A stretch of DNA of 64,000 nt from Myxococcales bacterium (GCA_020201435.1 JAIVGS010000189.1:14404-78403); one strand, 5' to 3'; numbered from the stretch's first letter, positions 7,759 to 64,000 are shown. Made by a program: numbers and translations. The notes: generated by a model from the sequence alone, not told the origin.

Positions 7759-7770
7759 GGAGCGACAGTA

Positions 7771-7809: not shown

Positions 7810-7846
7810 CGCTGAACGAACCGGTAGCCGGCAGCCGGTGGCCTGA

Positions 7847-9774
<1,928 letters not shown>

Positions 9775-12350: not shown

Positions 12351-12357
12351 ACCGGGG

Positions 12358-26272: not shown

Positions 26273-26766
26273 TATCCCCCCGCCTTGGCGCGCGCTTCGG
26301 CGAGCTTGGCGTTCGCTTTCCGCAGGCGGTCGGAAAGGGCCCCGCAGAAGCACTTGTAGACCTTGATCGCCAGCTTGTCGTTCGAGGCGATCAGCTTCTC
26401 GAACTCGCGCCGGGGGATGACCAGCACCTCGAGCGGACCCTTGGTGACGACGTCGGCCGAGACCAGCTGGTCGTCGATCAGGCTCATTTCGCCGAACAGC
26501 TCGCCGGGAGCGAGCGTCGCCAGCTCCTTCTCGACGCCGGTGATCGGGTCCCGCCGCCGAACGATCGCCGCCCCCTCCTTGAGGATGTAGAGCGCCTGCC
26601 CCAGCGAATCCTGGTGGAGGACGACCGCGCCGTCGGGCTTCGACTCGATCCGGCAGATGCCTGAGAGCGCCATCGTCTCGCTGAAACCGAGCGTGCGGAA
26701 CAGCGGCACGCGCTGCAGGAGATCGACTCCCGGCGTCATCGGAAGGTCGAGGCTGATCTCGTCCAT
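26272..26766 (-). CDS. single-domain cyclic-nucleotide-binding protein
   Basis: 164 aa. 'HQDSLGQALYILKEGAA...GELFGEMSLIDDQLVSADV'. Its stop overlaps the pilT start by 1 nt (TAATG). Confidence 0.8.
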   Translation of the reverse strand: MDEISLDLPMTPGVDLLQRVPLFRTLGFSETMALSGICRIESKPDGAVVLHQDSLGQALYILKEGAAIVRRRDPITGVEKELATLAPGELFGEMSLIDDQLVSADVVTKGPLEVLVIPRREFEKLIASNDKLAIKVYKCFCGALSDRLRKANAKLAEARAKAGG

Positions 26767-26860
26767 GAGAGCTTGAGACTAGGTGGATCCGCCTCTCGGG
26801 GTCAACGAAACGGCCGCAAGGAATGCGTGGCCGGGCGCGGCGCGTTAACGTCTGAAGGAT

Positions 26861-40639: not shown

Positions 40640-43600
40640 TCAGGGACGGACCTGCACCGTTCCGGTTCGTGCGAGCTTGCCCCAGCCGACCGCGAATCCC
40701 GCGAGCGCGTTCCAGAGCGAGCGAATCAGCGCGACCCAGAGGAGTTGCCGGTAGGCGATTCGCTGGACGAACAGGCCCGCGAGCAAGCCGAGATCCTCTC
40801 CTTCGAGCAGCACCGCGACCGCCGAGAGCAGCAGGTCGAGCGCGAAGAAGAGCAGGTAGTAACCCGCAGTCGCCAGCGCGCGACCCCGCAGGAGCGAAAC
40901 GAGCAGGAGGATGTCCACCACCGGGGCCACGAACGGTACGATGAATTGATAGATGGCGAACGCGGGCAGGATCGCCCACCCGAGGACGCCGCCGCCGCGC
41001 CGGAACAGCCGCGACTTGTGCTTCCAGCACGCCTGGAGGACGCCGTACGTCCAGCGGAACCGTTGTTTCAAGAGCGATTCCGCCGTCTCCGGCGCCTCGG
41101 TATACGCGAGCGCCTGATCGGCGTAGACGACGCGGAATCCGGCCGCGATCAACCGCAGGGTCAGATCGGTGTCCTCGGCGAGCGTGTCCTCGTGGAATCC
41201 GCCGGCGTCGAGGACGGCCTTTCGCCGCCAGGCGCCGACCGCGCCGGGAACGACCGGCACCGCGCCGGCCAGGTCCCACGCGCGCCGCTCGAGGTTCTGC
41301 GCGGTCACGTACTCGAGGGCCTGCCACCGCGTCAGCCGGTTGACGCGATTGCCGACTTTCGCGTTGCCCGCGACCGCTCCGACGCGCGCGTCGGCGAACG
41401 GCGCGGTCAGGCGGGCGACGGTCTCCGGCGTGAAAATCGTGTCGCTGTCCAATGCGACGACGACCTCGCCCCGGGCTTCCGCAAATCCGAGATTGAGCGC
41501 GCTTGCTTTGCCTCCGTTCGGCTTGCCGAAGATGCGCACCCGCGGATTGCCGTCGAATTTCTCGTGTAAGACCGCAAGAGTACGGTCCTTGGAGCCGTCG
41601 TCGACGCAGACCACTTCCGCTACTTGAGGCTCCTGCGCGAGCAGAGAATCGACGGTGCGCGCGATCACCGCTTCCTCGTTGTAGGCCGGCACGACGACCG
41701 AAACCGTCAGCCCCGGCGGCGGCCGCTGCAGCCCGTTGCGGCGCGCCCGCCGCGCCTGCAGCGGCGCGAGCACCGCGAGGATGACGGCGCGCAGCGCGAG
41801 CAGCGCGATGGCGAACGCGAACAGCGGTCCGAGCGCGCGCGCGATCCCGCCGAGGATGCCGAAGACGACGCTGTCCGCGCTCGCCACCAGCGCCGACGCC
41901 GGCGCACGCGGAGCGGGCGGCAGCAGCTGATCGCGCGTGAACCCGGTCATCTCTTCCGGAGTGGCCAGCGCCAGACCCTTCGCCGCGAGCCCGTCGAGGA
42001 TCAGGGGCAAGGCCGCGAGGGTCGCCGACCGATCGCCGCCGCCGTCGTGCAGCAGGATCACCGATCCCTTGTCGACCTGCGCCAGCACGCGCGACGCGAT
42101 CACTTGCGGATCGCGCTCGGCGAAGTCCTCCGGATCGATGTCCTGGCCGAGCGTCAGGTACCCCATCTGTGACGCGCGTGCGATCACCTGCGCGTTCTGC
42201 GCTTCGTCGAGCGCCTCGTCGGAGTGATACGGCGGCCGGAACAGGCGCGGCTGCCGTCCGGTGATCCACTCCAGCAGCCGCTCGTTGACGTTGAGCTCGA
42301 CCTCCAGCCGCAGCGGCGAGACGCGCGAGAGATCCGGGTGGGTATAGGTGTGATTCCCGATCTCGTGTCCCTCCACATACTCGCGCCGCACCAGGTCCGG
42401 GCGTGCCTGCGCGTTCTCGCCGATGAGGAAGAACGCGGCTTTCGCACCCCGTGCCTTCAGGAAATCGAGGATCTCCGGCGTCCACTTCGGGTCCGGCCCG
42501 TCGTCGAACGTGAGCAGCACTTTTCCCGCCGGCTTCGCGCCGTGGCGCTCGAGGATCCATCCCGACGGGTACTGCTGATAATCGACCCGCGCGACGTGCC
42601 CGGCCGGATCCCACGCCACCGTCCGCCGCCCCGACTGCGGCCGCGCTTTGAGCGAGAAGACCTCGCCCTCACCGACCAGCGCGACGTCGTCGGGATCGTG
42701 CGCGGTGATGACGCCGTCGAGGCGCTGCCGCGCCAGGCTCTCGTCGAACCGGCGCTGCTCGGGAGGCCTGGCGAAGAGATCGAACACCCGCGGGTCCTCG
42801 GCACCGAGCCGCCAGATGGCGACGCCGCGGACGTGGAGCGGCTCGAGCGCCTCGAGCTGCGCGGCCATCGCCGGCGCGTCGAGGAAACGCACCTCGTGCT
42901 TCTCGTGCGCCTGGTCGTCGTCGTACTCGAAGTACGAGGTCTTCGAGTCCTGGTCCCACTCGATCGGGACCTCGTTCTCCCGCGCCAGAGCCAGCGCCTG
43001 GCCGAACGCGAGCTCGTCCGCCGGCCGCGCCGTGTCCCCGTCGGAATCGAGCGGCCAGTCGTAGCCATAGGCGCCGAGGGCGACGACGATCCTGTCGGCG
43101 GGCGCGCGCCGAAGGTATGCCGCCGCGCTCTCGGCGACGTAGTCCGGCGTCGCGATCGGCCCCGGATTGTCGGTCGAAGCGTGCTGGTCGTACGCCATCA
43201 CCACCAGAAAATCGGTCGCGGCCGCGAGCCGTTCGACCGGAACGCCGCGCAATTCGGCCGGCACGTCGACGCTCAGCAGGAAGCCGCGCGGATGCAGCTC
43301 CGTCCACGCCTGCTCGACGAACGCGGCGAGCTCCTGCCACAGCCTCGGATCGAGGTCCTCGAAGTCGAGGTTGACCCCGGCGAACCCGCGCTCCTCGCAG
43401 AGCCGCGCGAGCCGCTGGGCGCCGTCTTTTCGGGAGAGGAACGTCTTCACCAGCTCGCGCCGGAACTGCCCGTCCGCATAGTTCGAGACCGTCGGCGTCA
43501 ATTCCAGCCGCGCCGCCGCCTGCGCCAGGCGAGGATCCTCCTCGATCAGGAAGCTGCCGTCGCGATCGAGCCGGATCCACTCCGGCATCGCGTGCGTGAG

Positions 43601-43978
43601 CTGGTCGGCATGCGCCTGCAGCGAGGTCAGGCTCTGCGGATCCCAGTTGACCGCGAATCCCGCCAGCACCGGCTCCCGCGCATCGGCCGGTTTGCGCCGC
43701 CGCTGCGCGGCCTGTGCCTCGGTCAGTAGCGTTTTGAGACGGGCAGCCTCGTTTCGATACGCCCGTTCCCGCGCCTTGCTCTCCAGCGGATGGCCGGCCG
43801 GCAAGACGCCGCGGCCCACCGGCGCAGGCTCGGGCTCCGCCGCGCTCCTGCTCCACGGCGCAGGAAAGATCGAGACGAGAAACACGCCGAGCGCCGCCAC
43901 GGCTCCCGCCGCGCCGAGCACCGACGCGGCGCGAACCGCGCGTCCGCGCACTCCCGATTCATCACGAAACACGCTCAT
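40640..43978 (-). CDS. triple-domain exopolysaccharide enzyme: GH18-like, CE4 polysaccharide deacetylase and family-2 glycosyltransferase (PgaC/NodC-like)
   Basis: About 1112 aa from ATG 43978 (track start 44017). GH18-like 'GVNLDFEDL'. NodB 'LLTFDDGPDPKWTPEILD...GNHTYTHPDL'. GT2 'VSVVVPAYNEE...VCVDDGS...ALDSDT...QRFRWTYG'. Multiple TM helices. Confidence 0.8.
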   Translation of the reverse strand: MSVFRDESGVRGRAVRAASVLGAAGAVAALGVFLVSIFPAPWSRSAAEPEPAPVGRGVLPAGHPLESKARERAYRNEAARLKTLLTEAQAAQRRRKPADAREPVLAGFAVNWDPQSLTSLQAHADQLTHAMPEWIRLDRDGSFLIEEDPRLAQAAARLELTPTVSNYADGQFRRELVKTFLSRKDGAQRLARLCEERGFAGVNLDFEDLDPRLWQELAAFVEQAWTELHPRGFLLSVDVPAELRGVPVERLAAATDFLVVMAYDQHASTDNPGPIATPDYVAESAAAYLRRAPADRIVVALGAYGYDWPLDSDGDTARPADELAFGQALALARENEVPIEWDQDSKTSYFEYDDDQAHEKHEVRFLDAPAMAAQLEALEPLHVRGVAIWRLGAEDPRVFDLFARPPEQRRFDESLARQRLDGVITAHDPDDVALVGEGEVFSLKARPQSGRRTVAWDPAGHVARVDYQQYPSGWILERHGAKPAGKVLLTFDDGPDPKWTPEILDFLKARGAKAAFFLIGENAQARPDLVRREYVEGHEIGNHTYTHPDLSRVSPLRLEVELNVNERLLEWITGRQPRLFRPPYHSDEALDEAQNAQVIARASQMGYLTLGQDIDPEDFAERDPQVIASRVLAQVDKGSVILLHDGGGDRSATLAALPLILDGLAAKGLALATPEEMTGFTRDQLLPPAPRAPASALVASADSVVFGILGGIARALGPLFAFAIALLALRAVILAVLAPLQARRARRNGLQRPPPGLTVSVVVPAYNEEAVIARTVDSLLAQEPQVAEVVCVDDGSKDRTLAVLHEKFDGNPRVRIFGKPNGGKASALNLGFAEARGEVVVALDSDTIFTPETVARLTAPFADARVGAVAGNAKVGNRVNRLTRWQALEYVTAQNLERRAWDLAGAVPVVPGAVGAWRRKAVLDAGGFHEDTLAEDTDLTLRLIAAGFRVVYADQALAYTEAPETAESLLKQRFRWTYGVLQACWKHKSRLFRRGGGVLGWAILPAFAIYQFIVPFVAPVVDILLLVSLLRGRALATAGYYLLFFALDLLLSAVAVLLEGEDLGLLAGLFVQRIAYRQLLWVALIRSLWNALAGFAVGWGKLARTGTVQVRP

Positions 43979-44049
43979 TTCGAGACCCTTTGACGCACGC
44001 GCAGCCGCTTCATGCAACGGGTGTGCCGGCCTGTGTTACACACCCACCC

Positions 44050-46846: not shown

Positions 46847-47865
46847 CGCAGCATCTGTCAGCACCGGGAAAGGTCTTTCTCGCCGGCGAGTACGCGGTGC
46901 TCGACGGGCGGCCGGCGCTCGTCGCCGGTATCGATCGGGCGCTGCACGCCTCCTGGCAATCTGTAAAAAATGTACAGATCGTCCATGCCCCGTCGGGGAT
47001 CATCTGGGATGGCGGCCGGCCGCCGGAAGAGCTGCGGTTCGCCGTCCGCGCAGCCGAGCTCGCGCTCCGGCTGTGCGAAGAGGAGGACCTGCAACACCGC
47101 GGTTTTCGTCTCGTTTTCGAGGATGATTTCGTTTCCGAGGAAGGCGTCAAGCTCGGCCTCGGCGGCAGCGCGGCGGCCTCGGTGATCGCGGCGCGGGCCG
47201 CCTGCGCCGCGCAGGGACGGCTCCTGCCCGAGAAAGAGGCGCTCGCGCTCGCTCTCGCCGCGCATTTCATCGAGCAGGGCGGCTCCGGCAGCGGCGCCGA
47301 CGTGGCCGCCTGCGCTCTCGGCGGGGTCCTGCGGGTCCGGGCGCGGATTCCCTGGCGCTCGGCAGAGGAAGCGATGGCCGCTCCGGCGCGCGAATTGCTC
47401 CATGCCCACGCGATCGAAGCCGAGCGCGTCCGGGTCCCTGCCGATCTGCGGCTCCTGCTCGCCTTCACCGGAACAGCGGCGGACTCCCGCATCCTCGTCC
47501 GCAAGGTCAGCGCGTTCATCCGTGGCGATCCGCGCAAGTGGGCGAGGACGGCCGACGAGATCGGCGCCCAATCCGAATCGCTGCGCGAAGCTCTCGAATC
47601 GGGCGCCCGCGACGAAGCTCTCGCCGCCGTCCGGGCCGGAGCCGCGGCGATGGCGAGGCTCGGCGAGGAAGCCGGCGCCGGGATCATCACCGCCGACCTT
47701 GCCCTCGCGTGCGCGCTCGCGGCCTCGGCGGGCGCGGCCGGCAAGCCGAGCGGCGCGGGCGGCGGAGATTCGGCGGTCGTGCTCGCCTTCGGCGACGAGG
47801 TCCGCGATCGCGCCGAAGCCGCGTTGCGACAGCACTTTTCCGTCTTTCGCGTCGTCCCGGCATGA
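46843..47865 (+). CDS. phosphomevalonate kinase (GHMP kinase)
   Basis: ATG 46843 overlaps the mvaD stop (ATGA), 340 aa. 'APGKVFLAGEYAVLDGRPAL', 'GLGGSAAAS', 'GKPSGAGGGD'. Confidence 0.75.
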   Translation: MTQHLSAPGKVFLAGEYAVLDGRPALVAGIDRALHASWQSVKNVQIVHAPSGIIWDGGRPPEELRFAVRAAELALRLCEEEDLQHRGFRLVFEDDFVSEEGVKLGLGGSAAASVIAARAACAAQGRLLPEKEALALALAAHFIEQGGSGSGADVAACALGGVLRVRARIPWRSAEEAMAAPARELLHAHAIEAERVRVPADLRLLLAFTGTAADSRILVRKVSAFIRGDPRKWARTADEIGAQSESLREALESGARDEALAAVRAGAAAMARLGEEAGAGIITADLALACALAASAGAAGKPSGAGGGDSAVVLAFGDEVRDRAEAALRQHFSVFRVVPA

Positions 47866-50429
47866 TCCTCGCGCTGGTTTTCAGCCTGCTCGCGACCGGC
47901 GAGAACGTGCGCGAGCCCGTGGCGCAGCCGCAGCCGGCAGCGCCGCAGATCGCGCAGTTTCCCGAGGTGGTCGAGTCGGTCACCCCTGACTACCCGCCCG
48001 CTCGCCTCGAGCGCGGCGAGACCGCGGTGGTTGTGCTGACCATCGACATCGACGAGCAGGGCAACGTCGTCCGCGCCGAGGTGGCGAAGGGCGCCGGGGC
48101 GGATTTCGACCAGAGCGCCCTTGCCGCGATCCGGAAGTTCCACTTCTCGCCGGCGAAAGACACGACCGGCAAGCCGCTGCTCGTGCGCGTCCCGTTCACG
48201 ATGCGCTTCGTGGTCGCGAAGAAGGCCGTGCAACATGAGATTTTGACCGGCGTCGTGCGCGGCATCGTGCGCGAGGCAGGCACGCGAAGGCCGATCGCCG
48301 GCGCCGACGTGATCTCCGACGCCGGCCGCTCGGCGATCACCAACGCCGAGGGCCGCTACCAGATCGACCTCAACCCCGGCGAGCGCGTGCTCACCATCTC
48401 CGCCCCCGGCTACGAGCAGCGCGAGGTCAAGGTCACCGCCGCGCTCGATTCGATCGTCGAAGCGCCGGCGACGTGGCTTCACCGCACGGTCGTCGGGGGC
48501 CTCGAGGCGACCGTCCCCGGCGAGAAGCCGAAGGACGCCCCGACGCGCCGCACGCTCACCCACGACGAGCTCGTCAACGTGCCGGGATCATTGAACGATC
48601 CGATCCGCGCCGTGCAGAACCTGCCGGGGCTCGCGCGCTCGCCGTTCCTCGGTGGCCAGCTCCTCGTCCGCGGCTCGCCGCCGGCGGATACCGGCACCTA
48701 CCTCGATGGACACCGGATTCCCCAGCTCTACCACTTCCTCGGCGGGCCGTCGGTGATCAACGAGCAGCTCCTCGACCGGATCGATTTCTTCCCCGGCGGC
48801 TACGGCGCGTACTACGGCCGCAACCTCACCGGCGCGATCGACGTCGGCACTCGCAAGGGAGACCAGCAGGGACTGCACGGCCAGGCGTCGCTCGATCTGA
48901 TCGAAGCGGTCGGATTCGTCGAAGGCCCGGTCGACTCGAGCACGCAGGTCGCGGTCGCGGCCCGGCGCAGCCACATCGATCTCTTCCTGCCGCTCTTCAT
49001 CCCCAACGATCCGAACCGCGGCGTCACCAGCATCGTCCCGATCTATTGGGACTACCAGGCGCGGGTCGATCACGAGAACCTCTCGCTGCTGGTCTTCGGC
49101 AGCAGCGACGCGCTCACCGTCATCGAGAAAGGCGGGCGGAGGACGCTGCCGCTCTCGATCGACACCCGCCTCGGCTTCCACCGCGCCGTCATGACCTGGA
49201 AGCACGACCTCTCCGAGACTCTGTCGCTGAACCTCTCGCCCGCGCTCGGCTGGACCAGGCAGTCGTTCAGCGCCGAAGGCGCCGGGCCGGGCGCATTCGC
49301 CCAGCCGCAGACCGGGGACGTCACCATCCTCACCGGCGAATTCCGCGCTGACCTGCGCTGGAAGGCGCGCAACTGGATCGAGGTGCGCGCGGGAACCGAC
49401 GTCGAATTCGACCGGGCCGCGTACAGCTTCGACATCCAGTCCTCCCTGCAGCTTCGCAACCTCGGCATCCTGATCACCCAGCGCGACGTCTTCTCGCGCG
49501 TGCAACCGGCTCAATTGTGGGGAGAATTTGCCGAAGCCAAGATGACGCTCGGCAAGCTCGAGCTGACGCCGGGCCTGCGGTTCGACCAGTATCACTGGCG
49601 AGAGCATGCGCGGTGGTCGATCGATCCGCGGCTGTGGGGCCGGTACGCGCTCTCCGACACCTGGGCGGTCAAGTCGTACGTCGGGCTGTACCACGAGCCG
49701 CCCAACGGGCAGCAGATCGACATCGACGTCGGCAATCCCGACCTCGGCCTGGAGTGGGCGCTGCAGGTCGGCGCCGGCGTCGAGCACCGGATCTCCGATG
49801 TCTGGAACGTGAGCGCGGAGGTCTTCTACAACCGGCGCGGCTCGCTGATCGTCCGCGTCGACCCGGTCCTGCAGCCCGACCAGACGGTCTACAACCCGCG
49901 CCTGCTCAACAACGGCATCGGCCGCTCGTACGGGCTCGAGCTGTGGATCCGGCGCGAGATCACGGCCAGGCTCTACGGCTGGCTCGCGTACACACTGTCG
50001 AAGAGCGAGATCCTGCCGAATCCGGGCGACCAGTGGCGGGCGTTCCAGTTCGATCAGACGCACATCCTCACGCTCGTGGTCGGGTATCGGCCGACGCCGG
50101 GATGGGAGCTCTCGACCCGGTACCGCCTCGTGTCGGGCAATCCGATCGCGCCGGTCGACTACGCGACGTTCGACGCCGATACCGGCAGCTTCATCCCGAC
50201 CCGGGGCACGTTCGGCGATGCGCGCGAGCCGCTCTTCAGCCAGCTCGACGGGCGCGCGCAGTACACCTGGACGTGGACGTACTGGCAGCTCTCGCTCTAC
50301 CTCGACGTGCAGAACGTGACCAACCGGACCAACGAGGAGTTCCACGTCTACGACTACCGGTATCGCGATCAGGGCAGCATTTCGGGGCTGCCGATCCTGC
50401 CGACCTTCGGCGTAAAGGGAAAGTTCTGA
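47862..50429 (+). CDS. TonB-dependent-receptor-like outer-membrane protein with N-terminal TonB-C and carboxypeptidase-regulatory-like domains
   Basis: ATG 47862 overlaps the pmk stop (ATGA), 855 aa. 'VTPDYPPARLERGETAVVVLTIDIDEQGNV', 'GVVRGIVRE...TNAEGRYQI', plug 'PGSLNDPIRAVQNLPG', terminal '...LPTFGVKGKF'. Confidence 0.8.
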   Translation: MILALVFSLLATGENVREPVAQPQPAAPQIAQFPEVVESVTPDYPPARLERGETAVVVLTIDIDEQGNVVRAEVAKGAGADFDQSALAAIRKFHFSPAKDTTGKPLLVRVPFTMRFVVAKKAVQHEILTGVVRGIVREAGTRRPIAGADVISDAGRSAITNAEGRYQIDLNPGERVLTISAPGYEQREVKVTAALDSIVEAPATWLHRTVVGGLEATVPGEKPKDAPTRRTLTHDELVNVPGSLNDPIRAVQNLPGLARSPFLGGQLLVRGSPPADTGTYLDGHRIPQLYHFLGGPSVINEQLLDRIDFFPGGYGAYYGRNLTGAIDVGTRKGDQQGLHGQASLDLIEAVGFVEGPVDSSTQVAVAARRSHIDLFLPLFIPNDPNRGVTSIVPIYWDYQARVDHENLSLLVFGSSDALTVIEKGGRRTLPLSIDTRLGFHRAVMTWKHDLSETLSLNLSPALGWTRQSFSAEGAGPGAFAQPQTGDVTILTGEFRADLRWKARNWIEVRAGTDVEFDRAAYSFDIQSSLQLRNLGILITQRDVFSRVQPAQLWGEFAEAKMTLGKLELTPGLRFDQYHWREHARWSIDPRLWGRYALSDTWAVKSYVGLYHEPPNGQQIDIDVGNPDLGLEWALQVGAGVEHRISDVWNVSAEVFYNRRGSLIVRVDPVLQPDQTVYNPRLLNNGIGRSYGLELWIRREITARLYGWLAYTLSKSEILPNPGDQWRAFQFDQTHILTLVVGYRPTPGWELSTRYRLVSGNPIAPVDYATFDADTGSFIPTRGTFGDAREPLFSQLDGRAQYTWTWTYWQLSLYLDVQNVTNRTNEEFHVYDYRYRDQGSISGLPILPTFGVKGKF

Positions 50430-53269: not shown

Positions 53270-53887
53270 TCACGGCATCCCGTCGAAGAATTCGACCTCG
53301 CCGGTGGCGAGCTCGTACACGCCGCCGACCACGGCGAGGCCGCGCTCGAGGACCATCCGCTCGATGATCTCGGAGCCGTGCCGCAGTTGATTCGCGCTGG
53401 CGCGGACGTTGGCGCGGGTGGCCACGCGGGCCAGCGCGTCCGGATCGCGCGCGAGGTCGGTCTGCAACAGGGGCTCGATCGCCGGGCGGATGCGGTCGAC
53501 GATCGCCATCAGTCCGCGCGACCCCGCCTTGGCCCGTCCCTGAAGCACGTCGAGCGTCGCGCCCACGCCGCCGCAGAAGGTGTGACCGAGGACCACCACC
53601 AGCGGCGTCTGGAACCGCTCGACCGCGAACTCCACGCTTCCGACCTGCGAGGGCGCGACGATGTTGCCCGCCACGCGGATGACGAACAGGTCGCCGAGAC
53701 CCTGGTCGAAGACGATCTCGGCGGGGACGCGCGAATCGGAACAGCCGAGCACGACCGCGAACGGGTTCTGCCCGTGGACGAAATCGGCCCGCCGCACCTG
53801 GCTCAGAATCGGCTCCGCTCCACGCACGTTGGCGATGAAGCGCGCGTTGCCCTGCTTCAGCTTTTCCAATGCCTCGGGCGCGTTCAT
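53270..53887 (-). CDS. beta-class carbonic anhydrase
   Basis: ATG 53887 ('MNAPEALEKLKQGNARF'), 205 aa. 'LGCSDSRVP', 'FVIRVAGN', 'VLGHTFCGG'. Confidence 0.88.
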   Translation of the reverse strand: MNAPEALEKLKQGNARFIANVRGAEPILSQVRRADFVHGQNPFAVVLGCSDSRVPAEIVFDQGLGDLFVIRVAGNIVAPSQVGSVEFAVERFQTPLVVVLGHTFCGGVGATLDVLQGRAKAGSRGLMAIVDRIRPAIEPLLQTDLARDPDALARVATRANVRASANQLRHGSEIIERMVLERGLAVVGGVYELATGEVEFFDGMP

Positions 53888-53911
53888 GCGCGAGGTTATA
53901 CAATCGCCCGC

Positions 53912-54742
53912 ATGAGAATACCGGCTGTCGTCTCCAGCTTTGTCCACCGCGGACTGCGCATCTCGTTTCGCGAGTACGGCCACGGGCCCCGCGCGATCGT
54001 GCTGGTCCACGGCCTCTTGATGGACGGCAGCATGTTCGAGAAGGTCGCGCCCCCGCTCGCCGAGCGGGGACATCGCGTGATCGTCGTCGATCTGCCCGGC
54101 CACGGCGCGTCCGATCAGCCGCACGACATGGGCGCGTATTCGATGACCGCGTACGGCCGGGACGTGATCGCGCTGCTCGATCACCTCGGGCTCGAGACGG
54201 CCGTCATCGGCGGGACGTCTCTGGGCGCGAACGTCGGTCTCGAAGCCGCGGTCGCCGCTCCCGAGCGGGTGCGCGCGCTGGTCCTCGAGATGCCGGTCCT
54301 CGAGAAGGGCATCACCGGCGCCGGCGTCCTCTTCGTGCCGCTCGCGTTCGTGCTGCGCTTGAGCCAGCGCGGCATGCGCGCGGTCTCGCGGGCGACGCGG
54401 AAGATCCCGCGGACGCTCTTCCTCCTCGATCTTCTGATCGATTTCGCCCGGCGCGATCCGGCTTCGTCTCTGGCGGTCCTCGACGGAATCACCTTTGGAC
54501 GCGTCGCGCCGCCCCTCGAGGATCGGCGTCGCATCGCGCATCCGACGCTGGTGATCGGCCACCCCTCGGATCCGATCCACCCGTTCAGCGACGCCGACCG
54601 GACCGCCCGCGAGCTGCCCCGCGCGCGGATGATCGAAGCGCGATCGATCTACGAATGGCGCGTCCGTCCGGCGCGGCTGAACGCGGAGCTCGCGTCATTT
54701 CTGGACGGCGTCTGGGCCGAGCCCGCAGCGCGCGTCGGCTGA
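53912..54742 (+). CDS. alpha/beta hydrolase
   Basis: ATG 53912, 276 aa. 'IVLVHGLLMDGSMF', nucleophile elbow 'GGTSLGA'. Confidence 0.8.
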   Translation: MRIPAVVSSFVHRGLRISFREYGHGPRAIVLVHGLLMDGSMFEKVAPPLAERGHRVIVVDLPGHGASDQPHDMGAYSMTAYGRDVIALLDHLGLETAVIGGTSLGANVGLEAAVAAPERVRALVLEMPVLEKGITGAGVLFVPLAFVLRLSQRGMRAVSRATRKIPRTLFLLDLLIDFARRDPASSLAVLDGITFGRVAPPLEDRRRIAHPTLVIGHPSDPIHPFSDADRTARELPRARMIEARSIYEWRVRPARLNAELASFLDGVWAEPAARVG

Positions 54743-57207: not shown

Positions 57208-57912
57208 TCAAGTCCGCGTCTTCATGTGCGGCAGCGGCGGCTCGAGGACGTGGCCGTTCTGACAGCACTGCACCGGGTGCTGCACCTCGGGCGCCCTCGT
57301 CCAGGCCTGCTGAACGGCCGTGTAGAGCTTGCTCGACGCGACCCGCGCGATCACGTCGCTTCGCACGAACGTGACGCCGACATCGCCGCCCGGGTCCGCG
57401 CGCACGACCTTCACCCGGCCGAGCACACCCGGCATCGGCGGCTCGGCGCCCATGATCCGCATCTCGGCATCGGTCCCCGCCCTCATCCCCGCCGCGCCGG
57501 TCACGCGGGCGCCGTTCATGGCGACGTCGATCATCCGGCCCAGGTACGGCATGCCGCGGACCTTGATCTCGACCATCATGTCGCACCCGATCCGCCGCTG
57601 GTGCCGGCCGACGAAGGCCTTCATGCCCTGGTCGAGCTTGCGGGCGAGCTTGGCGTCGGGAAACTCGATCCAGGCTCCGGTCTGGCCGCCTTCGCCGTCG
57701 AGGCGCGAGAGCACCGCGCCGCGCATCGTGGTCGCCTGCTCGCTGTCGGCGAAGGAGAATTCCATCACCACGCGCGAGGCGCCGGTGAAGCTCGCCATGC
57801 GCGGGTCGCGGTAGAAGAACAGCGTCCGCCCTTCGACCACGTGCAGATGCCTCTGCATCTGCAGGAAAGTCCCGAAGCGGTACTTGAGCAGGGCCGCCGC
57901 ACGCGAATCCAC
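57208..57912 (-). CDS. PilZ-domain protein
   Basis: 234 aa. 'GRHQRRIGCDMMVEIKV...GRMIDVAMNGARV' approximates the RxxxR...D/NxSxxG c-di-GMP motif. Starts 15 nt after the BMC-T stop. Confidence 0.55.
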   Translation of the reverse strand: MDSRAAALLKYRFGTFLQMQRHLHVVEGRTLFFYRDPRMASFTGASRVVMEFSFADSEQATTMRGAVLSRLDGEGGQTGAWIEFPDAKLARKLDQGMKAFVGRHQRRIGCDMMVEIKVRGMPYLGRMIDVAMNGARVTGAAGMRAGTDAEMRIMGAEPPMPGVLGRVKVVRADPGGDVGVTFVRSDVIARVASSKLYTAVQQAWTRAPEVQHPVQCCQNGHVLEPPLPHMKTRT

Positions 57913-57927
57913 CGCATTTGTCTAGGG

Positions 57928-58485
57928 CTAGAGCGCGACTCCGCGCAAGTCGCGGTGGGGACGCGCGATGATCTCAGCCCCGGCCAGCAGGCCGTCGCCG
58001 GCCGCTTGCGTGGCGGCCGCGACCGAGGCTTCGACGGAATGGAGATCGCCGCGCACGATGAACCAGGCTTTCCCGCCGATTCCGCGGGCGAGATGGAGCA
58101 GCTGGAGCCGCACCTGGGCGGCCTTGCAGGCGGCGTCCGCCGAGCGCAGCGCGGCCGCGACCGAATGCACCTCGATTAGACCCGCGGTCTCCTCGGCGGC
58201 GTCGTGGACGAAGCCTTTCGCGCCGGCGCGGATGGCAGGCAGGAGCTGCTCGTGCGCTTGTGGCAAAAACAGCCGATCGACGAGGGCTTCGGCAGCGGCA
58301 GCCGCGCCGGCGGCCTGCGACTCGTCGACCTCGGCGACGCCGCCCGCGAAAAGGATCAGGTACTTCCCGGGGCTGACCGGCTCGCACTGGATCAGCTCGA
58401 TCGACGCGCGCTTCGCGACCGCGTCCGCCACCACCACGCCGCGGGCGAGCGAGGCCACTTCGAGGAGGGCCAGTGCTTCAGACAA
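57928..58485 (-). CDS. BMC-T shell protein (tandem BMC domains, PduT-like)
   Basis: 185 aa. Two BMC repeats: 'LALLEVASLARGVVVADAVAKRASIELI...PGKYLILFAGGVAEVDES' and 'GLIEVHSVAAALRSADAACKAAQVRL...GGKAWFIVRGDLHSVEAS'. Confidence 0.85.
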   Translation of the reverse strand: MSEALALLEVASLARGVVVADAVAKRASIELIQCEPVSPGKYLILFAGGVAEVDESQAAGAAAAAEALVDRLFLPQAHEQLLPAIRAGAKGFVHDAAEETAGLIEVHSVAAALRSADAACKAAQVRLQLLHLARGIGGKAWFIVRGDLHSVEASVAAATQAAGDGLLAGAEIIARPHRDLRGVAL

Positions 58486-59932
58486 TGCGGAACTTGTCCT
58501 TGAGCGTGCAGCGGCGCTCGCGGGTGTAGGTGCGGGCGGTGGTCAGGCCGTCGCCGGAGGAGCCGGCGATGGTCCACGCCGTATATCCCTCGCCGCCGAC
58601 GCCCAACCCAGCGTAAGAAGGCGCGTTTTTGACGAAGAGTGAAGTGTTCACCGCGCGCGCCATGTTGTGCAGGTTGTCGATGCTCTTCGAGTGCATCACG
58701 GCGGTGTGGAAGAAGCCGTGCTCGGCCTTGACCGCTTCGCGGATGGCGACGTCGACGTCCTGCACGCGCACCATCGGGAAGACGGGCATCAGCATCTCGA
58801 GCTGGACGAACGGGTGACCGGCGTCGACTTCGGCGAGGAGGATCTTCGGATCCCCCTCGACGCGGATGCCGGCGGCGTCGGCGATCTTGCGCGCGTCCTT
58901 GCCGATGAAGTCCCGGTTGACGTGGCCGTCCTTGGTGACGACGGTCCGTTCGAGCCTGCTCAAAGCAGCGCCGTCGACCGCCCAGGCGCCGTTCCGGATC
59001 ATCTCGCGCTTCAAGGCGTCGGCGATGCTCCGCACCGCGAACAATTCCTTCTCGACGATGCAGATGATGTTGTTGTCCATCGCCGCGCCGAGGACGACGT
59101 CGCGGCCGGCCTGCTCGAGGTTGGCGGTCTCGTCGACGACGACCGGCGGATTTCCCGGTCCGGCGCAGATCGCGCGCTTGCCGGAGGCCATCGCCTGCTT
59201 CACGACCGCGCCGCCGCCGGTGACGACCACGACCTTGATGCCGGGATGCTTCATGAGAGCCTGGGCGCTCTCGATGGTCGGCTCGGCGATGCAGGCGACG
59301 AGATCCTGCGGCCCGCCGTTGGCGAGGATCGCCTCGTTGATCCAGGTGATCACGGTCCGCGAGATGTTCTTCGCGCCGGGGTGGACGTTGAAGACGACCG
59401 AGTTCCCGCCGGCGATCATGCTGATCGCGTTGTTGACGATGGTCTCGGTCGGGTTCGTCGACGGCGTGATGCTCAAAAGGGTTCCGAACGGCGCCCGCTC
59501 GTGCAGCGTGAGGCCGTCGTCGCCGGTGAAGGCGAGGGTGTCGAGGATTTCGAGCCCCGGCGTCTTCTCGATCGCGACGCGGTTCTTGATGATCTTGTGA
59601 TCGACCCGGCCGAGGCCCGTCTCGGCGACGGCCTTCTCGGCGATCTCCTCGACGCGATCGAGGCAGACCCTGCGGATCGCGGCGATGCACTTCGCCCGCG
59701 TCTCGACTCGGATTTCCTTCCAGATCTCGAATGCTTTGCCGGCCGCGGCGACGGCCTGATCGAGGTCGTCGAAGACCCCGGGCTGCGCGCTGCGCACGTA
59801 TGCCGGGCTGCGGCCCTCGCGGACGGCAAACCCGCGGCCCGCGCCGTCAGCGCCCGCGCCCTCCTGCGGCAAGCCGCGCAGCTTCTCGACGACTTTCTCG
59901 ACGAGCTTGTCGATCTGGTCCGGTGGCAGCAC
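58478..59932 (-). CDS. acylating aldehyde dehydrogenase (PduP/EutE family) with N-terminal encapsulation-peptide-like helix
   Basis: 484 aa. N-terminal amphipathic 'PDQIDKLVEKVVEKL', catalytic region 'MDNNIICIVEKE', 'PFGTLLSITPSTNPTET'. Overlaps the BMC-T start by 8 nt. Confidence 0.85.
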   Translation of the reverse strand: MLPPDQIDKLVEKVVEKLRGLPQEGAGADGAGRGFAVREGRSPAYVRSAQPGVFDDLDQAVAAAGKAFEIWKEIRVETRAKCIAAIRRVCLDRVEEIAEKAVAETGLGRVDHKIIKNRVAIEKTPGLEILDTLAFTGDDGLTLHERAPFGTLLSITPSTNPTETIVNNAISMIAGGNSVVFNVHPGAKNISRTVITWINEAILANGGPQDLVACIAEPTIESAQALMKHPGIKVVVVTGGGAVVKQAMASGKRAICAGPGNPPVVVDETANLEQAGRDVVLGAAMDNNIICIVEKELFAVRSIADALKREMIRNGAWAVDGAALSRLERTVVTKDGHVNRDFIGKDARKIADAAGIRVEGDPKILLAEVDAGHPFVQLEMLMPVFPMVRVQDVDVAIREAVKAEHGFFHTAVMHSKSIDNLHNMARAVNTSLFVKNAPSYAGLGVGGEGYTAWTIAGSSGDGLTTARTYTRERRCTLKDKFRIV

Positions 59933-59944
59933 GGCTGACGCCCC

Positions 59945-60232
59945 TTACTTGGTGTAGGTCTGGCGGCCCTCGAGCTCGATCGCGTCGACGATCGCCATGA
60001 TCGTCGCGTCCACCGGCCGGTCCTTGGTGACGCGGGTCTGCCGCGCCGACGAGCCGCTGGCGTAGAGGACGACTTCGCCGAGGCCCGCGCCGACGGCGTC
60101 GATGGCGACCACCAGCGGCCCGGTCGCGTTGCCTTCCACGTCGGCGCCGCGCACGAGCAGGAGCTTGAGCCCGTTGAGCTCCTGCTCCTTGGTGGTGGAG
60201 ACGATGGTCCCGATGACGCGCCCGAGCAGCAT
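59945..60232 (-). CDS. BMC-P pentameric vertex protein (EutN/CcmL family)
   Basis: 95 aa. '[27 protein letters not shown]...[23 protein letters not shown]'. Confidence 0.88.
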
Positions 60233-60235
60233 CGG

Positions 60236-60406
60236 CTATCTCCGCGATCCGACGAGCAAAAAGAGCGCGCCCACGGCGATCAGCCCGTAGCTCAGGATGT
60301 GCTTCACGTAATGGTGGTTGCCCCAGGTCACGCCGGTCGGCGTGGTGAAGAGGAAGTACCCGCCCGCGACGAGCAGCACGATCCCGATGACGGCGGGCCC
60401 CTTCAT
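60236..60406 (-). CDS. unlisted 56-aa two-TM membrane protein inside the BMC operon
   Basis: Manual translation gives [56 protein letters not shown]. 52 of 56 codons end in G/C. Its ATG overlaps the BMC-H stop (TAATG). Its stop lies 3 nt before the BMC-P ATG. Confidence 0.6.
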
Positions 60407-60735
60407 TACTTCTTCGTGCCGGAAGCGTTCCCGCCGCCGAGCTCGCGGCGGGCGTCGTCGCTGCGGCCGAGCGGCAGCGCGAGGTCGATGTTCGCGTGCG
60501 GCCGGGGAATGACGTGCACGCTGACCAGCTGTCCGACGCGTTCGGCGCCCCGGGCGCCGGCTTCGGTGGCGGCCTTCACCGCCGCGACGTCGCCGCGGAC
60601 GATCGCCGTCACGTACCCGCCGCCGATCTTCTCGTACCCGATCAGCTCGACCTTGGCGGCCTTGACCATCGCGTCGGCGGCTTCGACCATGCCGACGAAG
60701 CCCTTGGTCTCGATCATCCCCAGCGCGTCTGCCAT
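60406..60735 (-). CDS. BMC-H hexameric shell protein (PduA/EutM-like)
   Basis: Start re-set to ATG 60735 ('[56 protein letters not shown]'), 109 aa, with a charged C-terminal extension. Confidence 0.9.
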
Positions 60736-60804
60736 GAAGTGTTCTCTCCGTCCGGTGAGGGCTGGACTGCTAGCACGTAAGACCAAAGGCGTGCAATGCG
60801 TCAG

Positions 60805-61455
60805 CTACATCCGATAGCCGACCACGATCTCGGTCGTGAACGCGAAATCGGTCGGCGAGTTCGCGTACGAGTAGAACTGGGGGCCGAACTTCACGTTGAG
60901 GCCGACCAGCAGGTTGCGATCGACGTTGTATTCGGCGGCAAATCCGAACTGCGGGCCGATCTCGAAGTACGCCGTATGCGACCAGTTGATCGCCATCGTC
61001 AGATCGGCGCTGGCGCTGATGCGCAGGTCGGGGGTGGCCTGGATGCCGAGCGTGCCCCCGACTGGAAACCGGGTGAAGAAATTCGAAGTATTGTTCTTGG
61101 TGTACAGCCGCACGCCGGGTTCGATGTGCAGCCCGATCAGCACTTTTTCGTGCCGGTTGACGACCAGCCGCAGCGGCACATCCGCGCCCGCGCCGAACGT
61201 GGAATTGTTCGTGTTTTCGGCGGCGTAGAGCAGGGCGATCCTGAACCCGAAGTCGGAGCGGTCGGAGAGCCCGTGCAGGTAGCCGAAGGTGAGGCCCGGC
61301 CAACCCATCTCGAACGAGATCGCGTCGCGATCGGGGCTCACCGTCTCGCCGGTCGCGATCGACCAGTGGCCGGCCGCGCCGGGCGCGACGGCGGTGACGG
61401 GAACGCTGGCGGGAGCGGCGGCGGCGAGGACGAGGCTAAGACTTGCTATCACCAC
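60805..61455 (-). CDS. signal-peptide-bearing beta-barrel (OMP-like) protein
   Basis: Natural composition and alternating beta-strand pattern ('[12 protein letters not shown]','[15 protein letters not shown]','[13 protein letters not shown]','[13 protein letters not shown]'). GTG 61455/61452 follows AAGGAAG. The signal would be '[15 protein letters not shown]'. Start is uncertain (track start 61551). Confidence 0.6.
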
Positions 61456-62077
61456 GGACTTCCTTGCCGCTGACCCCCTGAATCGCGGCGGTTGCGGCAG
61501 CGGCAGCGCTGTCGATCTCGGCTTCGTCGCCCGACATGTAGAGGCGACCAAACGCGCCGAACGGCGTCACGTCAATCAGCCGCACGTCTGCGGCCTTTTC
61601 GGCCTCGTTGGCGGCGAGGACCGCGTACGCGGCCGGCTCGGTCTCCATGATGAACAGGCTGCGTCCCGGCTCGATCATCGAGCCGAAGCGGATCTTGTCG
61701 ATGATCATCGCGTGCATCGGCTCGATGGCGCGGATGATGGTGTTGGAGACGACCTTCGGCCTGGCCCGGTCCTCTTCCTTCGCGCCGAGGTGCTTCAGGA
61801 TCGCGTCGCCCGCGCTGCGGACTTCGCCCTTGTCCTCGTGATGCACTTCGAGCATCCCGAACGCGCGCTCGACGACCAGGGTGGCCGGATGCACGCCGGT
61901 GTTCTTGAGCGCGGTGTCGATCACCTGGTGGATGGCCATCCCCGGCGCGATCTCGACGAACAGCGAGGCGACGTACGGGACCGGAAAGTAGCCGCGGCAG
62001 GTGGTGCAGATGTGCGCGGCCAGCTGCGGCTGGAGCGAGTCGAGGAAGACGTACGCGCGAAGGTTGGTCTGGGCCAT
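61436..62077 (-). CDS. BMC-T shell protein (CsoS1D-like tandem type)
   Basis: ATG 62077 ('[23 protein letters not shown]'), 213 aa. '[46 protein letters not shown]' is a BMC domain. The N-half '[20 protein letters not shown]...FGMLEVHH' is a second one. Confidence 0.8.
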
Positions 62078-62133
62078 TGGCGCCCGCGCAAGTAGCACGG
62101 GCGACCTTGGCCGGCAACCGGCAACGGAACCGC

Positions 62134-62251
62134 GGAACGGAACGGAACGGAACGTTCACGGTGAGGGGTGAGGGGTTTGGGGTTGCGGGTTGGGGTCCCT
62201 GAACCTACACCCTCACCCCGATCCCCTGAACGTTCCGTTCCGTTCCGTTCC
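62134..62251. repeat. 118-nt palindromic element with (GGAAC)4 arms and a G-rich centre
   Basis: Arms GGAACGGAACGGAACGGAACGTTCA (62134-62158) and TGAACGTTCCGTTCCGTTCCGTTCC (62227-62251) are perfect 25-nt reverse complements. Partial pairing continues inward. Confidence 0.9.
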
Positions 62252-62278
62252 TTTGCCTTCTCCGTTACAGTGAGGGCG

Positions 62279-63583
62279 ATGCCCGTCATCAAGAGTTGGG
62301 CCCGCACCGACGTCGGGCACAAGCGGAAGCACAACGAAGACGCGTACTTGATCGACAAGGAGCTCGGTCTCTACGCGGTCGCCGACGGGATGGGCGGGCA
62401 CGCCGCCGGCGAGGTCGCGTCGGGGCAGGCGGTCAAGTCGATCCGCGACGCGCTCGCCGAGGGAAAGCCGATCCTCGAGGCCTTCGCGAAATCGCCGACC
62501 GTCGAATCGCGCGAGCAGATCGCGTCGCTGATGGAGCGCGCCATCCACAAGGCGTGCTCGGACATCCACTCGCTGGCGACCAGCGATCTGGGAAAGCGCG
62601 GCATGGGAACCACCGTCGTCGCGCTGCTCGCGGCGGGCCGGAAAGCCGTGGTCGGCCACGTCGGCGACAGCCGGGTTTATTTGTTTCGCAACGGAAGGGC
62701 GCACCAGCTCACCGAGGATCACACCATCATCCAGGAGCAGCTCAAGCGCGGGTTGATCACCAAGGAGCAGGTTCCGACCGCGGACAACAAGAACGTCATC
62801 ACCCGCGCGGTCGGCATCCAGCCGTCGGTCGCGGTCGACACCCTCGTCACCGACCTGCTGCCGGGCGATCTCTTCGTCCTTTGTTCGGACGGGCTTCACG
62901 GTTACCTGCAGGACGACGAGCTGCCCGGGCTGCTCGCGCAGGATCGCGAGAAGCTGCCGGATGTACTCGTGGATCTCGCATTGCAGCGGGGCGGCAAGGA
63001 CAACGTCACCGCGGTCTGCCTCTCGATCGAGGCCGACGAGGACGAAGAGACCAGCGACGTCGAGGGCAAGACCGAGATCCTCCGCCGCATCCCGCTCTTC
63101 CAGCACATGACCTACAAGGAGCTGCTCGCCATCCTCGGCATCGCCCGCGGCCGGCAGTTCGAGAAGGGCCAGAGCATCATCAAGGAAGGGGAGCAGGGCG
63201 ACGAGCTGTACGTCCTCTTCCGCGGCAAGGTCGACGTGCTCAAGGGCGGGCTCAAGATCGCGCAGCTCAAGGCCGGCGGGCACTTCGGCGAGATGGGCCT
63301 CGTCGACCAGGCCCCGCGCTCGGCGACGGTGACGGCGGCCGAGGACACCTCGGCGATCTCGATCGACCGCGACAGCCTGCTCAAGCTGATGCGCCGCGAT
63401 TCGCTTCTCGCGGTCAAGTTGCTGTGGAGCTTCGTGCAGGTCCTGTCCGAGCGGCTGCGCAACACCAACGACGCGCTGACGGCGCTCAACGCCGAGCTCG
63501 ACCAGGTCCGCGCCAAGAACACCGCGCCCGCTCTCGAAGCCGCCCCTCCAAAAAAATCCGGCCCGCCACCTTTTGGGCAATGA
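62279..63583 (+). CDS. PP2C-family Ser/Thr phosphatase fused to a cyclic-nucleotide-binding domain
   Basis: ATG 62279 ('MPVIKSWARTDVGHKRKHNEDAY...AVADGMGGHAAGEVAS...LCSDGLHG...GGKDNVTAV'). C-terminal CAP-ED 'GEQGDELYVLFRGKV...HFGEMGLVDQAPRSATV'. Confidence 0.88.
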   Translation: MPVIKSWARTDVGHKRKHNEDAYLIDKELGLYAVADGMGGHAAGEVASGQAVKSIRDALAEGKPILEAFAKSPTVESREQIASLMERAIHKACSDIHSLATSDLGKRGMGTTVVALLAAGRKAVVGHVGDSRVYLFRNGRAHQLTEDHTIIQEQLKRGLITKEQVPTADNKNVITRAVGIQPSVAVDTLVTDLLPGDLFVLCSDGLHGYLQDDELPGLLAQDREKLPDVLVDLALQRGGKDNVTAVCLSIEADEDEETSDVEGKTEILRRIPLFQHMTYKELLAILGIARGRQFEKGQSIIKEGEQGDELYVLFRGKVDVLKGGLKIAQLKAGGHFGEMGLVDQAPRSATVTAAEDTSAISIDRDSLLKLMRRDSLLAVKLLWSFVQVLSERLRNTNDALTALNAELDQVRAKNTAPALEAAPPKKSGPPPFGQ

Positions 63584-63596
63584 GCAACTGCAACTG

Positions 63597-63683
63597 CTCA
63601 CCACGGAGGCACGGAGGGCACGGAGTCTTGTTCTCAAAAAAATATGTTTTGTTTCTCCGTGCCCTCCGTGCCTCCGTGGTGAG
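63597..63683. repeat. REP-like perfect palindrome ('CACGGAG' family), likely also a bidirectional terminator
   Basis: CTCACCACGGAGGCACGGAGGGCACGGAG (63597-63625), a 29-nt A/T-rich loop, then CTCCGTGCCCTCCGTGCCTCCGTGGTGAG (63655-63683). It starts 13 nt after the PP2C stop and is followed by TTTTTGCTTTTT. Confidence 0.9.
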
Positions 63684-64000
63684 TTTTTGCTTTTTGGAGA
63701 GCGCCGCGTGTCCGAAGCCGCAGACGATTGCCGGGCCGATGCCGGAAGCGAGCGCGTTGTATGCGCAGGCGCAGGCCGCTCATCGAGCGCCCGAGTCCTT
63801 GACGTGCGACGCGAAGGCGATCGTCGATGCGCCGGAAAATGCCGGACGATACGCGCTGCATCTGTCGGTCAAGCGGCCGGCTTCGGTCCGGATCGAGGCG
63901 CTGACCCCGCTGGGCGATCCGGCGGCGGTGCTGGTCGCCGACCAAGGCAAGTTCGCCCTCCTCGATCTGCGCAACGGCGTCTTCTACCGGGGCCCGGCGA
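63628..64000 (+). CDS. partial LolB-like / DUF4292-like outer-membrane lipoprotein (runs off the window; start unresolved)
   Basis: Open frame to the window end reads '...SAACPKPQTIAGPMPEASALYAQAQAAHRAPESLTCDAKAIVDAPENAGRYALHLSVKRPASVRIEALTPLGDPAAVLVADQGKFALLDL'. Possible TTG/GTG starts lie at 63628-63694, inside the palindrome. Confidence 0.45.
   Translation, partial: MFSKKYVLFLRALRASVVSFCFLESAACPKPQTIAGPMPEASALYAQAQAAHRAPESLTCDAKAIVDAPENAGRYALHLSVKRPASVRIEALTPLGDPAAVLVADQGKFALLDLRNGVFYRGPA

Follow-up and report, generated by a model that had tools for sequence, protein, structure and literature searches.

What organelle is encoded by a bacterial microcompartment (BMC) locus in which an aldehyde dehydrogenase (AldDh) is the only recognizable cargo, and where would the partners of that enzyme come from? 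The question is raised by positions 57,928 to 62,077 of a 64,000-nt stretch of DNA (herein the window; ∼69% G+C) from a Myxococcales bacterium (GCA_020201435.1, JAIVGS010000189.1:14404-78403). A first description made without database searches (herein the sequence-only reading) had listed there a minus-strand set of four shell genes, an acylating AldDh, an outer-membrane-protein (OMP)-like gene, and a 56-aa ORF, and had likened the set to the “incomplete core” metabolosome loci of Haliangium ochraceum. Following up this description computationally, we find that the region is very probably the main locus of an HO type I BMC of uncultured soil Myxococcales, with a shell-housed AldDh and partners that would be encoded at a satellite locus. 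It is a further example of an organelle type that has already been catalogued and named, not a new system.

Gene Content and Shell Proteins of the Locus

Genes were called from a listing of open reading frames (ORFs) together with third-position G+C content (GC3); families were assigned with Pfam and NCBIfam, and structural relatives were found by sequence search of the Protein Data Bank (PDB). Eight closely packed minus-strand genes occupy 57208-62077, and the NCBI annotation (contig JBHELR010000173.1, GCA_046262975.1) calls the same eight, the 56-aa ORF included; the OMP-like protein is 100% identical to an NCBI entry from this Myxococcales metagenome assembly. The seven within 57928-62077 are intact and contiguous, and both their coordinates and the gene list of the sequence-only reading proved exact. 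Read 5′ to 3′, the operon order is Tdp-OMP-H-TM56-P-AldDh-Ts, then PilZ (Table 1), where Tdp and Ts are the double-stacking and single-layer BMC-T proteins, H and P the hexamer and pentamer shell proteins, and TM56 the 56-aa membrane protein. The locus thus holds four shell genes (one BMC-H, one BMC-Tdp, one BMC-Ts, and one BMC-P) and one cargo gene. The spacing between neighboring genes runs from −17 to +69 nt; the Tdp and OMP genes overlap by 17 nt, those for H and TM56 by 1 nt, and the gap from Ts to PilZ is 15 nt. The five BMC genes are full length and free of frameshifts, with GC3 values of 0.85-0.97 that match the expectation for expressed genes of this genome. Pseudogenized shell genes, named by the sequence-only reading as grounds for giving it up, were looked for; every ORF is full length, and pseudogenization of the locus is excluded.

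Each of the four shell assignments of that reading was borne out by Pfam and by PDB matches, and the likeness to H. ochraceum proposed there now has alignments behind it: to the crystallized HO proteins, BMC-H is 85%, BMC-P 64%, and BMC-Tdp 62% identical. The best PDB match of BMC-Tdp is HO-5816 (5v74; E = 7e-75), followed by CsoS1D (3f56; E = 6e-59) and CcmP; precomputed Pfam annotation gives it CsoS1D_N and BMC domains, and it scores 244 bits against the NCBIfam CcmP model, under the model cutoff. BMC-H has HO-5815 (5djb/5v74; E = 1e-46) as its best natural PDB match, and BMC-P has HO-5814 (5v74; E = 6e-33). BMC-Ts matches both PduT (3pac; E = 7e-35) and HO-5812 (5dih; E = 2e-31). Alignment to 3pac places a serine (PVSPGKY) at the pore position that is a cysteine in PduT (TICPGKF). 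The PduT pore cysteine ligates a [4Fe-4S] cluster; because serine replaces it in BMC-Ts, an Fe-S cluster is not expected there, and the protein falls outside the PduT-type Fe-S BMC-T group, for which the pore cysteine is diagnostic. HO-T1 carries serine at this position too.

The published classification gives these matches their context. Axen 2014 (PMC4207490) listed the H. ochraceum locus as a metabolosome with incomplete core (MIC), and Sutter 2021 (PMC8217296) renamed the class HO, with 41 loci. In that catalogue the HO type I main locus consists of shell genes and one pfam00171 AldDh only, and the AldDh always carries an N-terminal encapsulation peptide. A satellite with a class II aldolase (pfam00596) and two BMC-P genes is present in 24 of the 30 type I genomes; type II carries the aldolase in the main locus. 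Some HO genomes encode a DeoC-type aldolase, and a second Tdp, of the CcmP clade, lies elsewhere in the genome. The locus in the window has the type I makeup: shell genes with a single AldDh (by Pfam and NCBIfam), the two embedded extras not being enzymes; shell orthologs in the order Tdp-H-P-AldDh-Ts, the same as Hoch_5816 to Hoch_5812; and, by sequence in the window and in 23 orthologs, an encapsulation peptide at the AldDh N terminus. With an AldDh present and phosphotransacylase (PTAC) and alcohol dehydrogenase (ADH) absent from the locus, it also has the composition of a MIC, for which the lack of either or both is the mark.

The same order recurs widely. An AldDh search of genome contigs yielded 25 BMC loci, whose gene layout was mapped by tblastn (individual loci are cited with the prefix L). 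A divergent PP2C gene followed by Tdp-OMP-H-(TM56)-P-AldDh-Ts-PilZ is found, complete or as far as the contig reaches, in L001-L007, L010, L011, L014, and L021, and the same layout is seen in L031, L035/L036, and L037. Distant Myxococcota loci (L008, L009, L012, L013, and L016-L018) have the plain Tdp-H-P-AldDh-Ts order, L012 showing no Ts, and the neighbors of the distant HO loci are mutually unrelated and nonrecurrent. In all, the shell/AldDh gene order is common to about 20 Myxococcota loci. Orthologs are 60-97% identical across many metagenome-assembled genomes with the same minimal content, a sign of purifying selection.

Table 1. Coordinates of the microcompartment genes, their immediate neighbors, and associated elements (positions counted from the first letter of the window)
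Feature	Position	Strand	Remarks
BMC-Tdp (double-stacking BMC-T), 213 aa	61436-62077	-	HO-5816 (T2) ortholog; CsoS1D/CcmP-like
Outer-membrane beta-barrel protein (OMP-like), 215 aa	60805-61452	-	Signal peptide; sub-threshold Pfam OMP_b-brl match
BMC-H hexamer protein, 109 aa	60406-60735	-	HO-5815 ortholog; Pfam BMC E = 2e-30
TM56, 56-aa two-helix membrane protein	60236-60406	-	No family match; GC3 0.93
BMC-P pentamer vertex protein, 95 aa	59945-60232	-	HO-5814 ortholog; Pfam EutN_CcmL E = 2e-29
CoA-acylating AldDh (EutE/PduP type), 484 aa	58478-59932	-	Sole recognizable cargo of the locus
Encapsulation-peptide-like amphipathic helix, AldDh residues ∼4-20	59873-59923	-	PDQIDKLVEKVVEKLRG; conserved motif
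BMC-Ts (single-layer BMC-T), PduT-like, 185 aa	57928-58485	-	Two BMC domains; HO-5812 (T1) counterpart
PilZ-domain protein, 234 aa	57208-57912	-	Pfam PilZ E = 6e-7; 15 nt downstream of BMC-Ts
PP2C phosphatase with C-terminal cNMP-binding domain, 434 aa	62279-63583	+	Pfam PP2C and cNMP_binding; divergent
∼130-nt near-perfect palindrome	62126-62256	.	Divergent Tdp/PP2C intergenic region, upstream of operon; found with TRF

The Aldehyde Dehydrogenase and the Search for Its Partners

The cargo enzyme is firmly assigned by sequence to the EutE/PduP-type acylating AldDh family. It scores 642 bits against NCBIfam NF011927 (cutoff 403), its best PDB matches are structures of BMC-associated acylating AldDh enzymes (5jfl, E = 5e-131; 4c3s, E = 9e-122), and the catalytic-cysteine motif is conserved (NNIICIVEKE aligned to NNLPCVAEKE). 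At the N terminus orthologs share the motif DQIDKLVEKVVEKLR, after which comes a linker that varies in length; in the window this linker is Gly/Ala-rich and reaches about residue 50. The N-terminal segment (PDQIDKLVEKVVEKLR) is conserved in 23 orthologs, in which ∼14 to 50 linker residues precede the conserved catalytic domain. A conserved amphipathic helix, a variable linker, and a catalytic domain make up a predicted encapsulation-peptide architecture, and the acylating AldDh with an encapsulation-peptide-like helix that had been described before database searches is thus upheld by family model, structural matches, and conservation alike. The nearest nonmyxobacterial AldDh relatives are 48-53% identical and lie in loci with multiple BMC-P genes; the two such Spirochaetes loci that were inspected also encode PduS and TPI and are therefore SPU-like. 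This relationship, read from identity and locus content, agrees with the catalogue, in which the closest AldDh relatives of HO are in SPU5 and SPU7 (Sutter 2021, PMC8217296).

If the shell is built like its solved HO homolog, the facets of a ∼40-nm icosahedron would be tiled by H hexamers and T trimers and its vertices capped by P pentamers, and the AldDh N-terminal helix would, by the same homology, dock the enzyme on the inner shell surface. There the AldDh would convert a short-chain aldehyde, NAD+, and CoA to acyl-CoA and NADH, so that the reactive aldehyde is kept from the cytoplasm. One would expect a satellite locus, at another site of the genome, to supply the aldehyde-forming enzyme and two further BMC-P paralogs. 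Because there is no local PTAC or ADH, NAD+ and CoA may be recycled by enzymes encoded elsewhere, or be exchanged through the gated, CsoS1D-like pore of BMC-Tdp.

The search for such partners covered ∼55 ORFs by Pfam scan, essentially every ORF of the window supported by codon bias, and ∼7.5 kb of flank beyond the window end through NCBI gene calls on contig JBHELR010000173.1. Neither window nor flank has a class II or DeoC aldolase, PduL/Pta (PF06130), an alcohol dehydrogenase, or further BMC or EutN domains, and tblastn with all locus proteins found no shell or locus-protein paralogs across the window. The two further BMC-P genes of the satellite type are likewise absent from both window and flank, and no second CcmP-clade Tdp lies in the window; in the more distant loci L016 and L018 a second Tdp is found ∼7 kb upstream. 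The flank encodes a hypothetical protein, two MshEN-domain proteins, an HD-domain protein, an ECF sigma/anti-sigma pair, and Tad-pilus genes. A divergent BMC-P profile built from SPU-like loci, run against a protein collection, gave no match attributable to Myxococcales among the best 120 of 7969; Spirochaetota and other phyla dominate. The sequence-only reading had seen no signature enzyme, PTAC, or ADH, and this holds across window and flank. Its description of the AldDh as the only recognizable cargo stands for this locus and not necessarily for the organelle, for which the catalogue reports candidate enzymes at satellites.

Segments inserted in L005, L008, and L009 and the neighbors of the distant loci L012, L013, and L018 were also inspected for cargo, and nothing recurrent emerged; they encode a chemoreceptor, HEAT/vitellogenin-like proteins, a sigma-54 activator, an M20 peptidase, a 4HBT thioesterase (L013 only), an Exo_endo_phos protein, and a CCG/Fe-S protein. 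The L013 gene (7874-8425, minus strand), for an acyl-CoA thioesterase of the 4HBT family, is the first one upstream of BMC-Tdp and divergent from it, in this one locus; its product could be a CoA-releasing substitute for phosphotransacylase.

These surroundings bear on the main alternative account of the locus, which we consider unlikely: a self-sufficient minimal compartment, with AldDh as sole cargo and general aldehyde scavenging or detoxification as its task, would need no satellite signature enzyme. Aldehydes would enter from the cytoplasm by diffusion, and NAD+/NADH and CoA/acyl-CoA would pass through the large gated BMC-Tdp pore. Across ∼20 related loci only the AldDh is consistently linked to the shell genes, and the distant HO loci have unrelated neighbors (sigma-54 activator, thioesterase, peptidase, endonuclease/phosphatase), as such a compartment would predict. 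To our knowledge, all characterized metabolosomes encapsulate the aldehyde-producing step, which counts against it. Axen 2014 (PMC4207490) raises the possibility that MIC loci do not strictly require cofactor recycling, and Sutter 2021 (PMC8217296) suggests that Tdp pores may pass large cofactors. Against a minimal compartment, the same catalogue records the satellite aldolase with its BMC-P pair for 24 of the 30 type I genomes and a main-locus aldolase for type II, which argues for a dedicated upstream enzyme.

The assignment to HO type I with satellite-encoded partners, which we favor, has points against it as well. In the window it draws on the main locus, the satellite BMC-P pair, second Tdp, and aldolase being known from the catalogue. 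BMC-Ts matches PduT proteins slightly better than HO-5812, a protein that sits on a long branch in the published tree (Sutter 2021, PMC8217296). The transcription unit is deduced from gene spacing; scanning for sigma-70 promoters and terminators gave no convincing promoter ahead of the operon. The proposed substrate and cofactor handling is inferred, and a 2025 paper ascribes to the HO BMC “a yet unknown function” (PMC11924220). That statement agrees with the sequence-only reading, which had left substrate and role open, and a search of the literature brought up no function assigned to HO BMCs after 2021. A 2025 preprint on an Asgard “AMC” deals with SPU-type compartments from deep-branching Myxococcota, not with HO.

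Embedded and Neighboring Genes in Related Loci

Two genes within the operon and one directly after it have no counterpart in the H. ochraceum order. In the OMP-like protein a signal peptide precedes the mature region, which is strongly conserved in the alignment. Its AlphaFold model is an all-beta barrel of 12-13 strands (pLDDT 86, pTM 0.75), and the top PDB matches of the model by Foldseek are all outer-membrane barrels (Pla, OmpT, OmpA, and OmpG). TM56 has two hydrophobic helices, and its length and a His-rich loop are conserved in six orthologs; the database holds 37 relatives. Its ATG overlaps the BMC-H stop codon (TAATG), and together with a GC3 of 0.93 and conservation in other loci this junction supports the 56-aa ORF, proposed in the sequence-only reading, as a gene. 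The PilZ protein directly downstream and the divergent PP2C-cNMP protein upstream, both named there too, were confirmed by Pfam. PilZ also follows the locus in L001-L007, L009, L021, L031, and L035, and is possibly cotranscribed with the BMC operon. PP2C-cNMP lies beside most of the BMC-plus relatives.

An envelope-linked system could be built from these genes, with the barrel as an outer-membrane substrate channel, TM56, coupled to BMC-H, tethering the organelle to the membrane or aiding its assembly, and PilZ exerting cyclic di-GMP (c-di-GMP) control. The operon-like junctions (the 17-nt and 1-nt overlaps and the 15-nt gap), an arrangement conserved in >12 loci, and the unusually well conserved mature part of the barrel would fit, as would the placement of TM56, found only between BMC-H and BMC-P and with its conserved His-rich loop. 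We nevertheless judge it improbable on the evidence of relatives that have no BMC. L032-L034 contain OMP homologs of 58-70% identity in the same Tad-pilus/ECF/MshEN neighborhood and have neither BMC genes nor PP2C; no remnants of Tdp, H, TM56, P, AldDh, Ts, or PP2C are detectable in any of the three. PilZ comes directly after the OMP gene in L032 and L033, and L034 keeps OMP and the upstream neighborhood with no adjacent PilZ. In neighbor-joining trees of OMP, PilZ, and a nearby LPG-synthase, the BMC-less loci nest among the BMC-plus loci. This pattern is most simply read as a secondary, clean loss of the BMC genes that had flanked a resident OMP-PilZ pair.

Because the barrel and PilZ persist side by side in BMC-less L032 and L033, locus comparison identifies them as pre-existing resident chromosomal neighbors, not organelle parts. 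Accordingly the OMP-like gene keeps its place in the contiguous set first described, and is an outer-membrane barrel by prediction, but as a resident neighbor it does not belong to the organelle. The barrel is moreover absent from L008, L009, L012, L013, and L016-L018, the H. ochraceum gene numbering leaves no room for it, TM56 is missing from many loci, and the Tdp/H junction at which the barrel gene lies has also taken up unrelated genes, such as that for the L005 chemoreceptor. For OMP and PilZ, the envelope-linked system is thus largely refuted by the BMC-less loci; it remains for TM56 alone.

TM56 appears, from its distribution, to be the sole embedded gene specific to the BMC. It lies between BMC-H and BMC-P in all nine contexts in which it was placed (the window, L001, L003, L004, L005, L031, L035, L036, and L037, of which L035 and L036 share the same layout), and many loci lack it, among them that of the closest relative, L014, with an H-P gap of 12 nt. 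That TM56, whose translation is coupled to that of BMC-H, is a previously undescribed BMC accessory factor, for example an inner-membrane organelle tether or a substrate hand-over partner, is a long shot, and the gene is a cheap experimental lead.

The loss of BMC genes from near relatives might also suggest a locus in decay or fallen silent, left over from a larger metabolosome locus, stripped of its enzymes, and no longer forming a functional organelle. The absence of signature enzyme, PTAC, and ADH would fit, and BMC genes have evidently been lost outright in some sister lineages. The five BMC genes in the window, full length and unframeshifted with GC3 of 0.85-0.97, argue against decay, as do orthologs 60-97% identical with the same minimal content and H. 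ochraceum counterparts that assemble robustly (PMC4207490, PMC11924220); we regard a remnant as scarcely credible.

The relatives show further remodeling. In L005 a methyl-accepting chemotaxis protein gene (7347-9086, minus strand) is inserted between the OMP gene and BMC-H, and further insertions lie at or close to the Tdp/H junction in L008 and L009, so that foreign genes are tolerated at this site. In L031 the PP2C-cNMP gene (7790-9230) is recovered by tblastn in several pieces in different frames beside an otherwise intact HO locus, and is either a frameshifted pseudogene or an assembly error. The PilZ domain in the window has an RxxxR-like motif (RHQRR), and DVAMNG stands where the canonical motif is (D/N)xSxxG; because alanine replaces the serine, c-di-GMP binding is uncertain. 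A beta-class carbonic anhydrase is encoded on the same strand as the BMC operon (53270-53950, minus strand), with a MacB-type ABC permease and an alpha/beta hydrolase between it and PilZ. A link between this enzyme and the BMC, suggested by L031, where the carbonic anhydrase start overlaps the PilZ stop, was rejected: the gene is also near OMP in BMC-less L034, so the proximity is probably just synteny.

The intergenic region between the divergent Tdp and PP2C genes contains a palindrome (62126-62256) with (GGAAC)4/(GTTCC)4 arms around a G-rich inner hairpin. It gives five pattern matches against 0.21 expected and an RNA fold of −107 kcal/mol (z = −8.3). There are no other copies in the window; the 65-nt intergenic region of the closest relative L014 lacks it, and in L031 a single arm is present. 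Another very long hairpin, perfect in its pairing (63596-63684; −74.6 kcal/mol, z = −11.8), directly follows the PP2C stop, with a 30-bp stem of CACGGAG(G) repeats, an AT-rich loop, and then a U-tract. This second element, probably a terminator or a palindrome of a related kind, leaves the PP2C gene with a long hairpin on either side. A riboswitch search with Rfam returned only sub-threshold matches to microRNA models, on two long hairpins.

Elsewhere in the window, three genes have unusual architectures. An 1131-aa fusion (40640-44035, minus strand) joins GH18, polysaccharide deacetylase, and a family-2, chitin-synthase-like glycosyltransferase in an all-in-one arrangement for polysaccharide synthesis and modification; a short-chain dehydrogenase is fused to a class I/II aminotransferase (37203-38999, minus strand); and a TonB-dependent-receptor-like protein (47127-50429, plus strand) has TonB_C ahead of its CarboxypepD_reg and Plug domains. 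Second-messenger proteins are dense, with three cNMP-binding proteins (12205-13680, 26272-26778, and 62279-63583), PilZ, and the two MshEN proteins just beyond the window end.

Comparison with Known Microcompartment Systems

Structural work and synthetic biology on BMCs use the HO shell as their main model, and the locus leaves its native function unanswered. In an uncultured clade of soil Myxococcales, loci of HO type I are abundant, and their metagenomic relatives number in the hundreds. Here the locus has been remodeled repeatedly, by foreign genes at the Tdp/H and H/P junctions, and close relatives without BMC genes keep the neighbors. This contrast between BMC-plus and BMC-minus near relatives offers a way forward, since genes that covary with the shell would be candidates for the signature enzyme and for cofactor recycling.

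With H. ochraceum HO type I the locus shares the set and order of Tdp, H, P, encapsulation-peptide-bearing AldDh, and Ts, a single BMC-H, and a Myxococcota host; as in HO type I, the locus has no PTAC, ADH, or signature enzyme. Unlike that of H. ochraceum, it has an outer-membrane beta-barrel gene between Tdp and H and a 56-aa membrane protein gene between H and P, PilZ directly after and PP2C-cNMP divergently upstream, and a BMC-Ts closer to PduT than to HO-5812. A carboxysome was considered and rejected, there being no RuBisCO; the carbonic anhydrase is a gene of the neighborhood, retained in BMC-less L034.

SPU (sugar-phosphate utilization) systems, in particular subtypes 5 and 7, resemble the locus in their AldDh (∼48-53% identity, with an N-terminal encapsulation peptide) and in a CsoS1D/CcmP-like BMC-Tdp. 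SPU loci encode a DeoC aldolase (pfam01791) and RpiB (pfam02502), of which neither family occurs in the window, along with a full BMC-P triplet in the one locus and often TPI, PduS, and a Cys-bearing PduT, none of them present here. MIC7 of Latescibacteria and Eisenbacteria likewise has only an AldDh with an encapsulation peptide besides its shell proteins; it differs in having two BMC-H, an in-locus BMC-P triplet, a satellite Tdp, hosts from other phyla, and an AldDh closest to SPU3. The PDU and EUT systems, finally, share with the locus a PduP/EutE-type acylating AldDh with an encapsulation peptide, a PduT-like trimer, and EutM/PduA-like hexamers; unlike them, it has no diol dehydratase, ethanolamine ammonia-lyase, PduL/Pta, or ADH, and carries serine at the position of the PduT pore cysteine.

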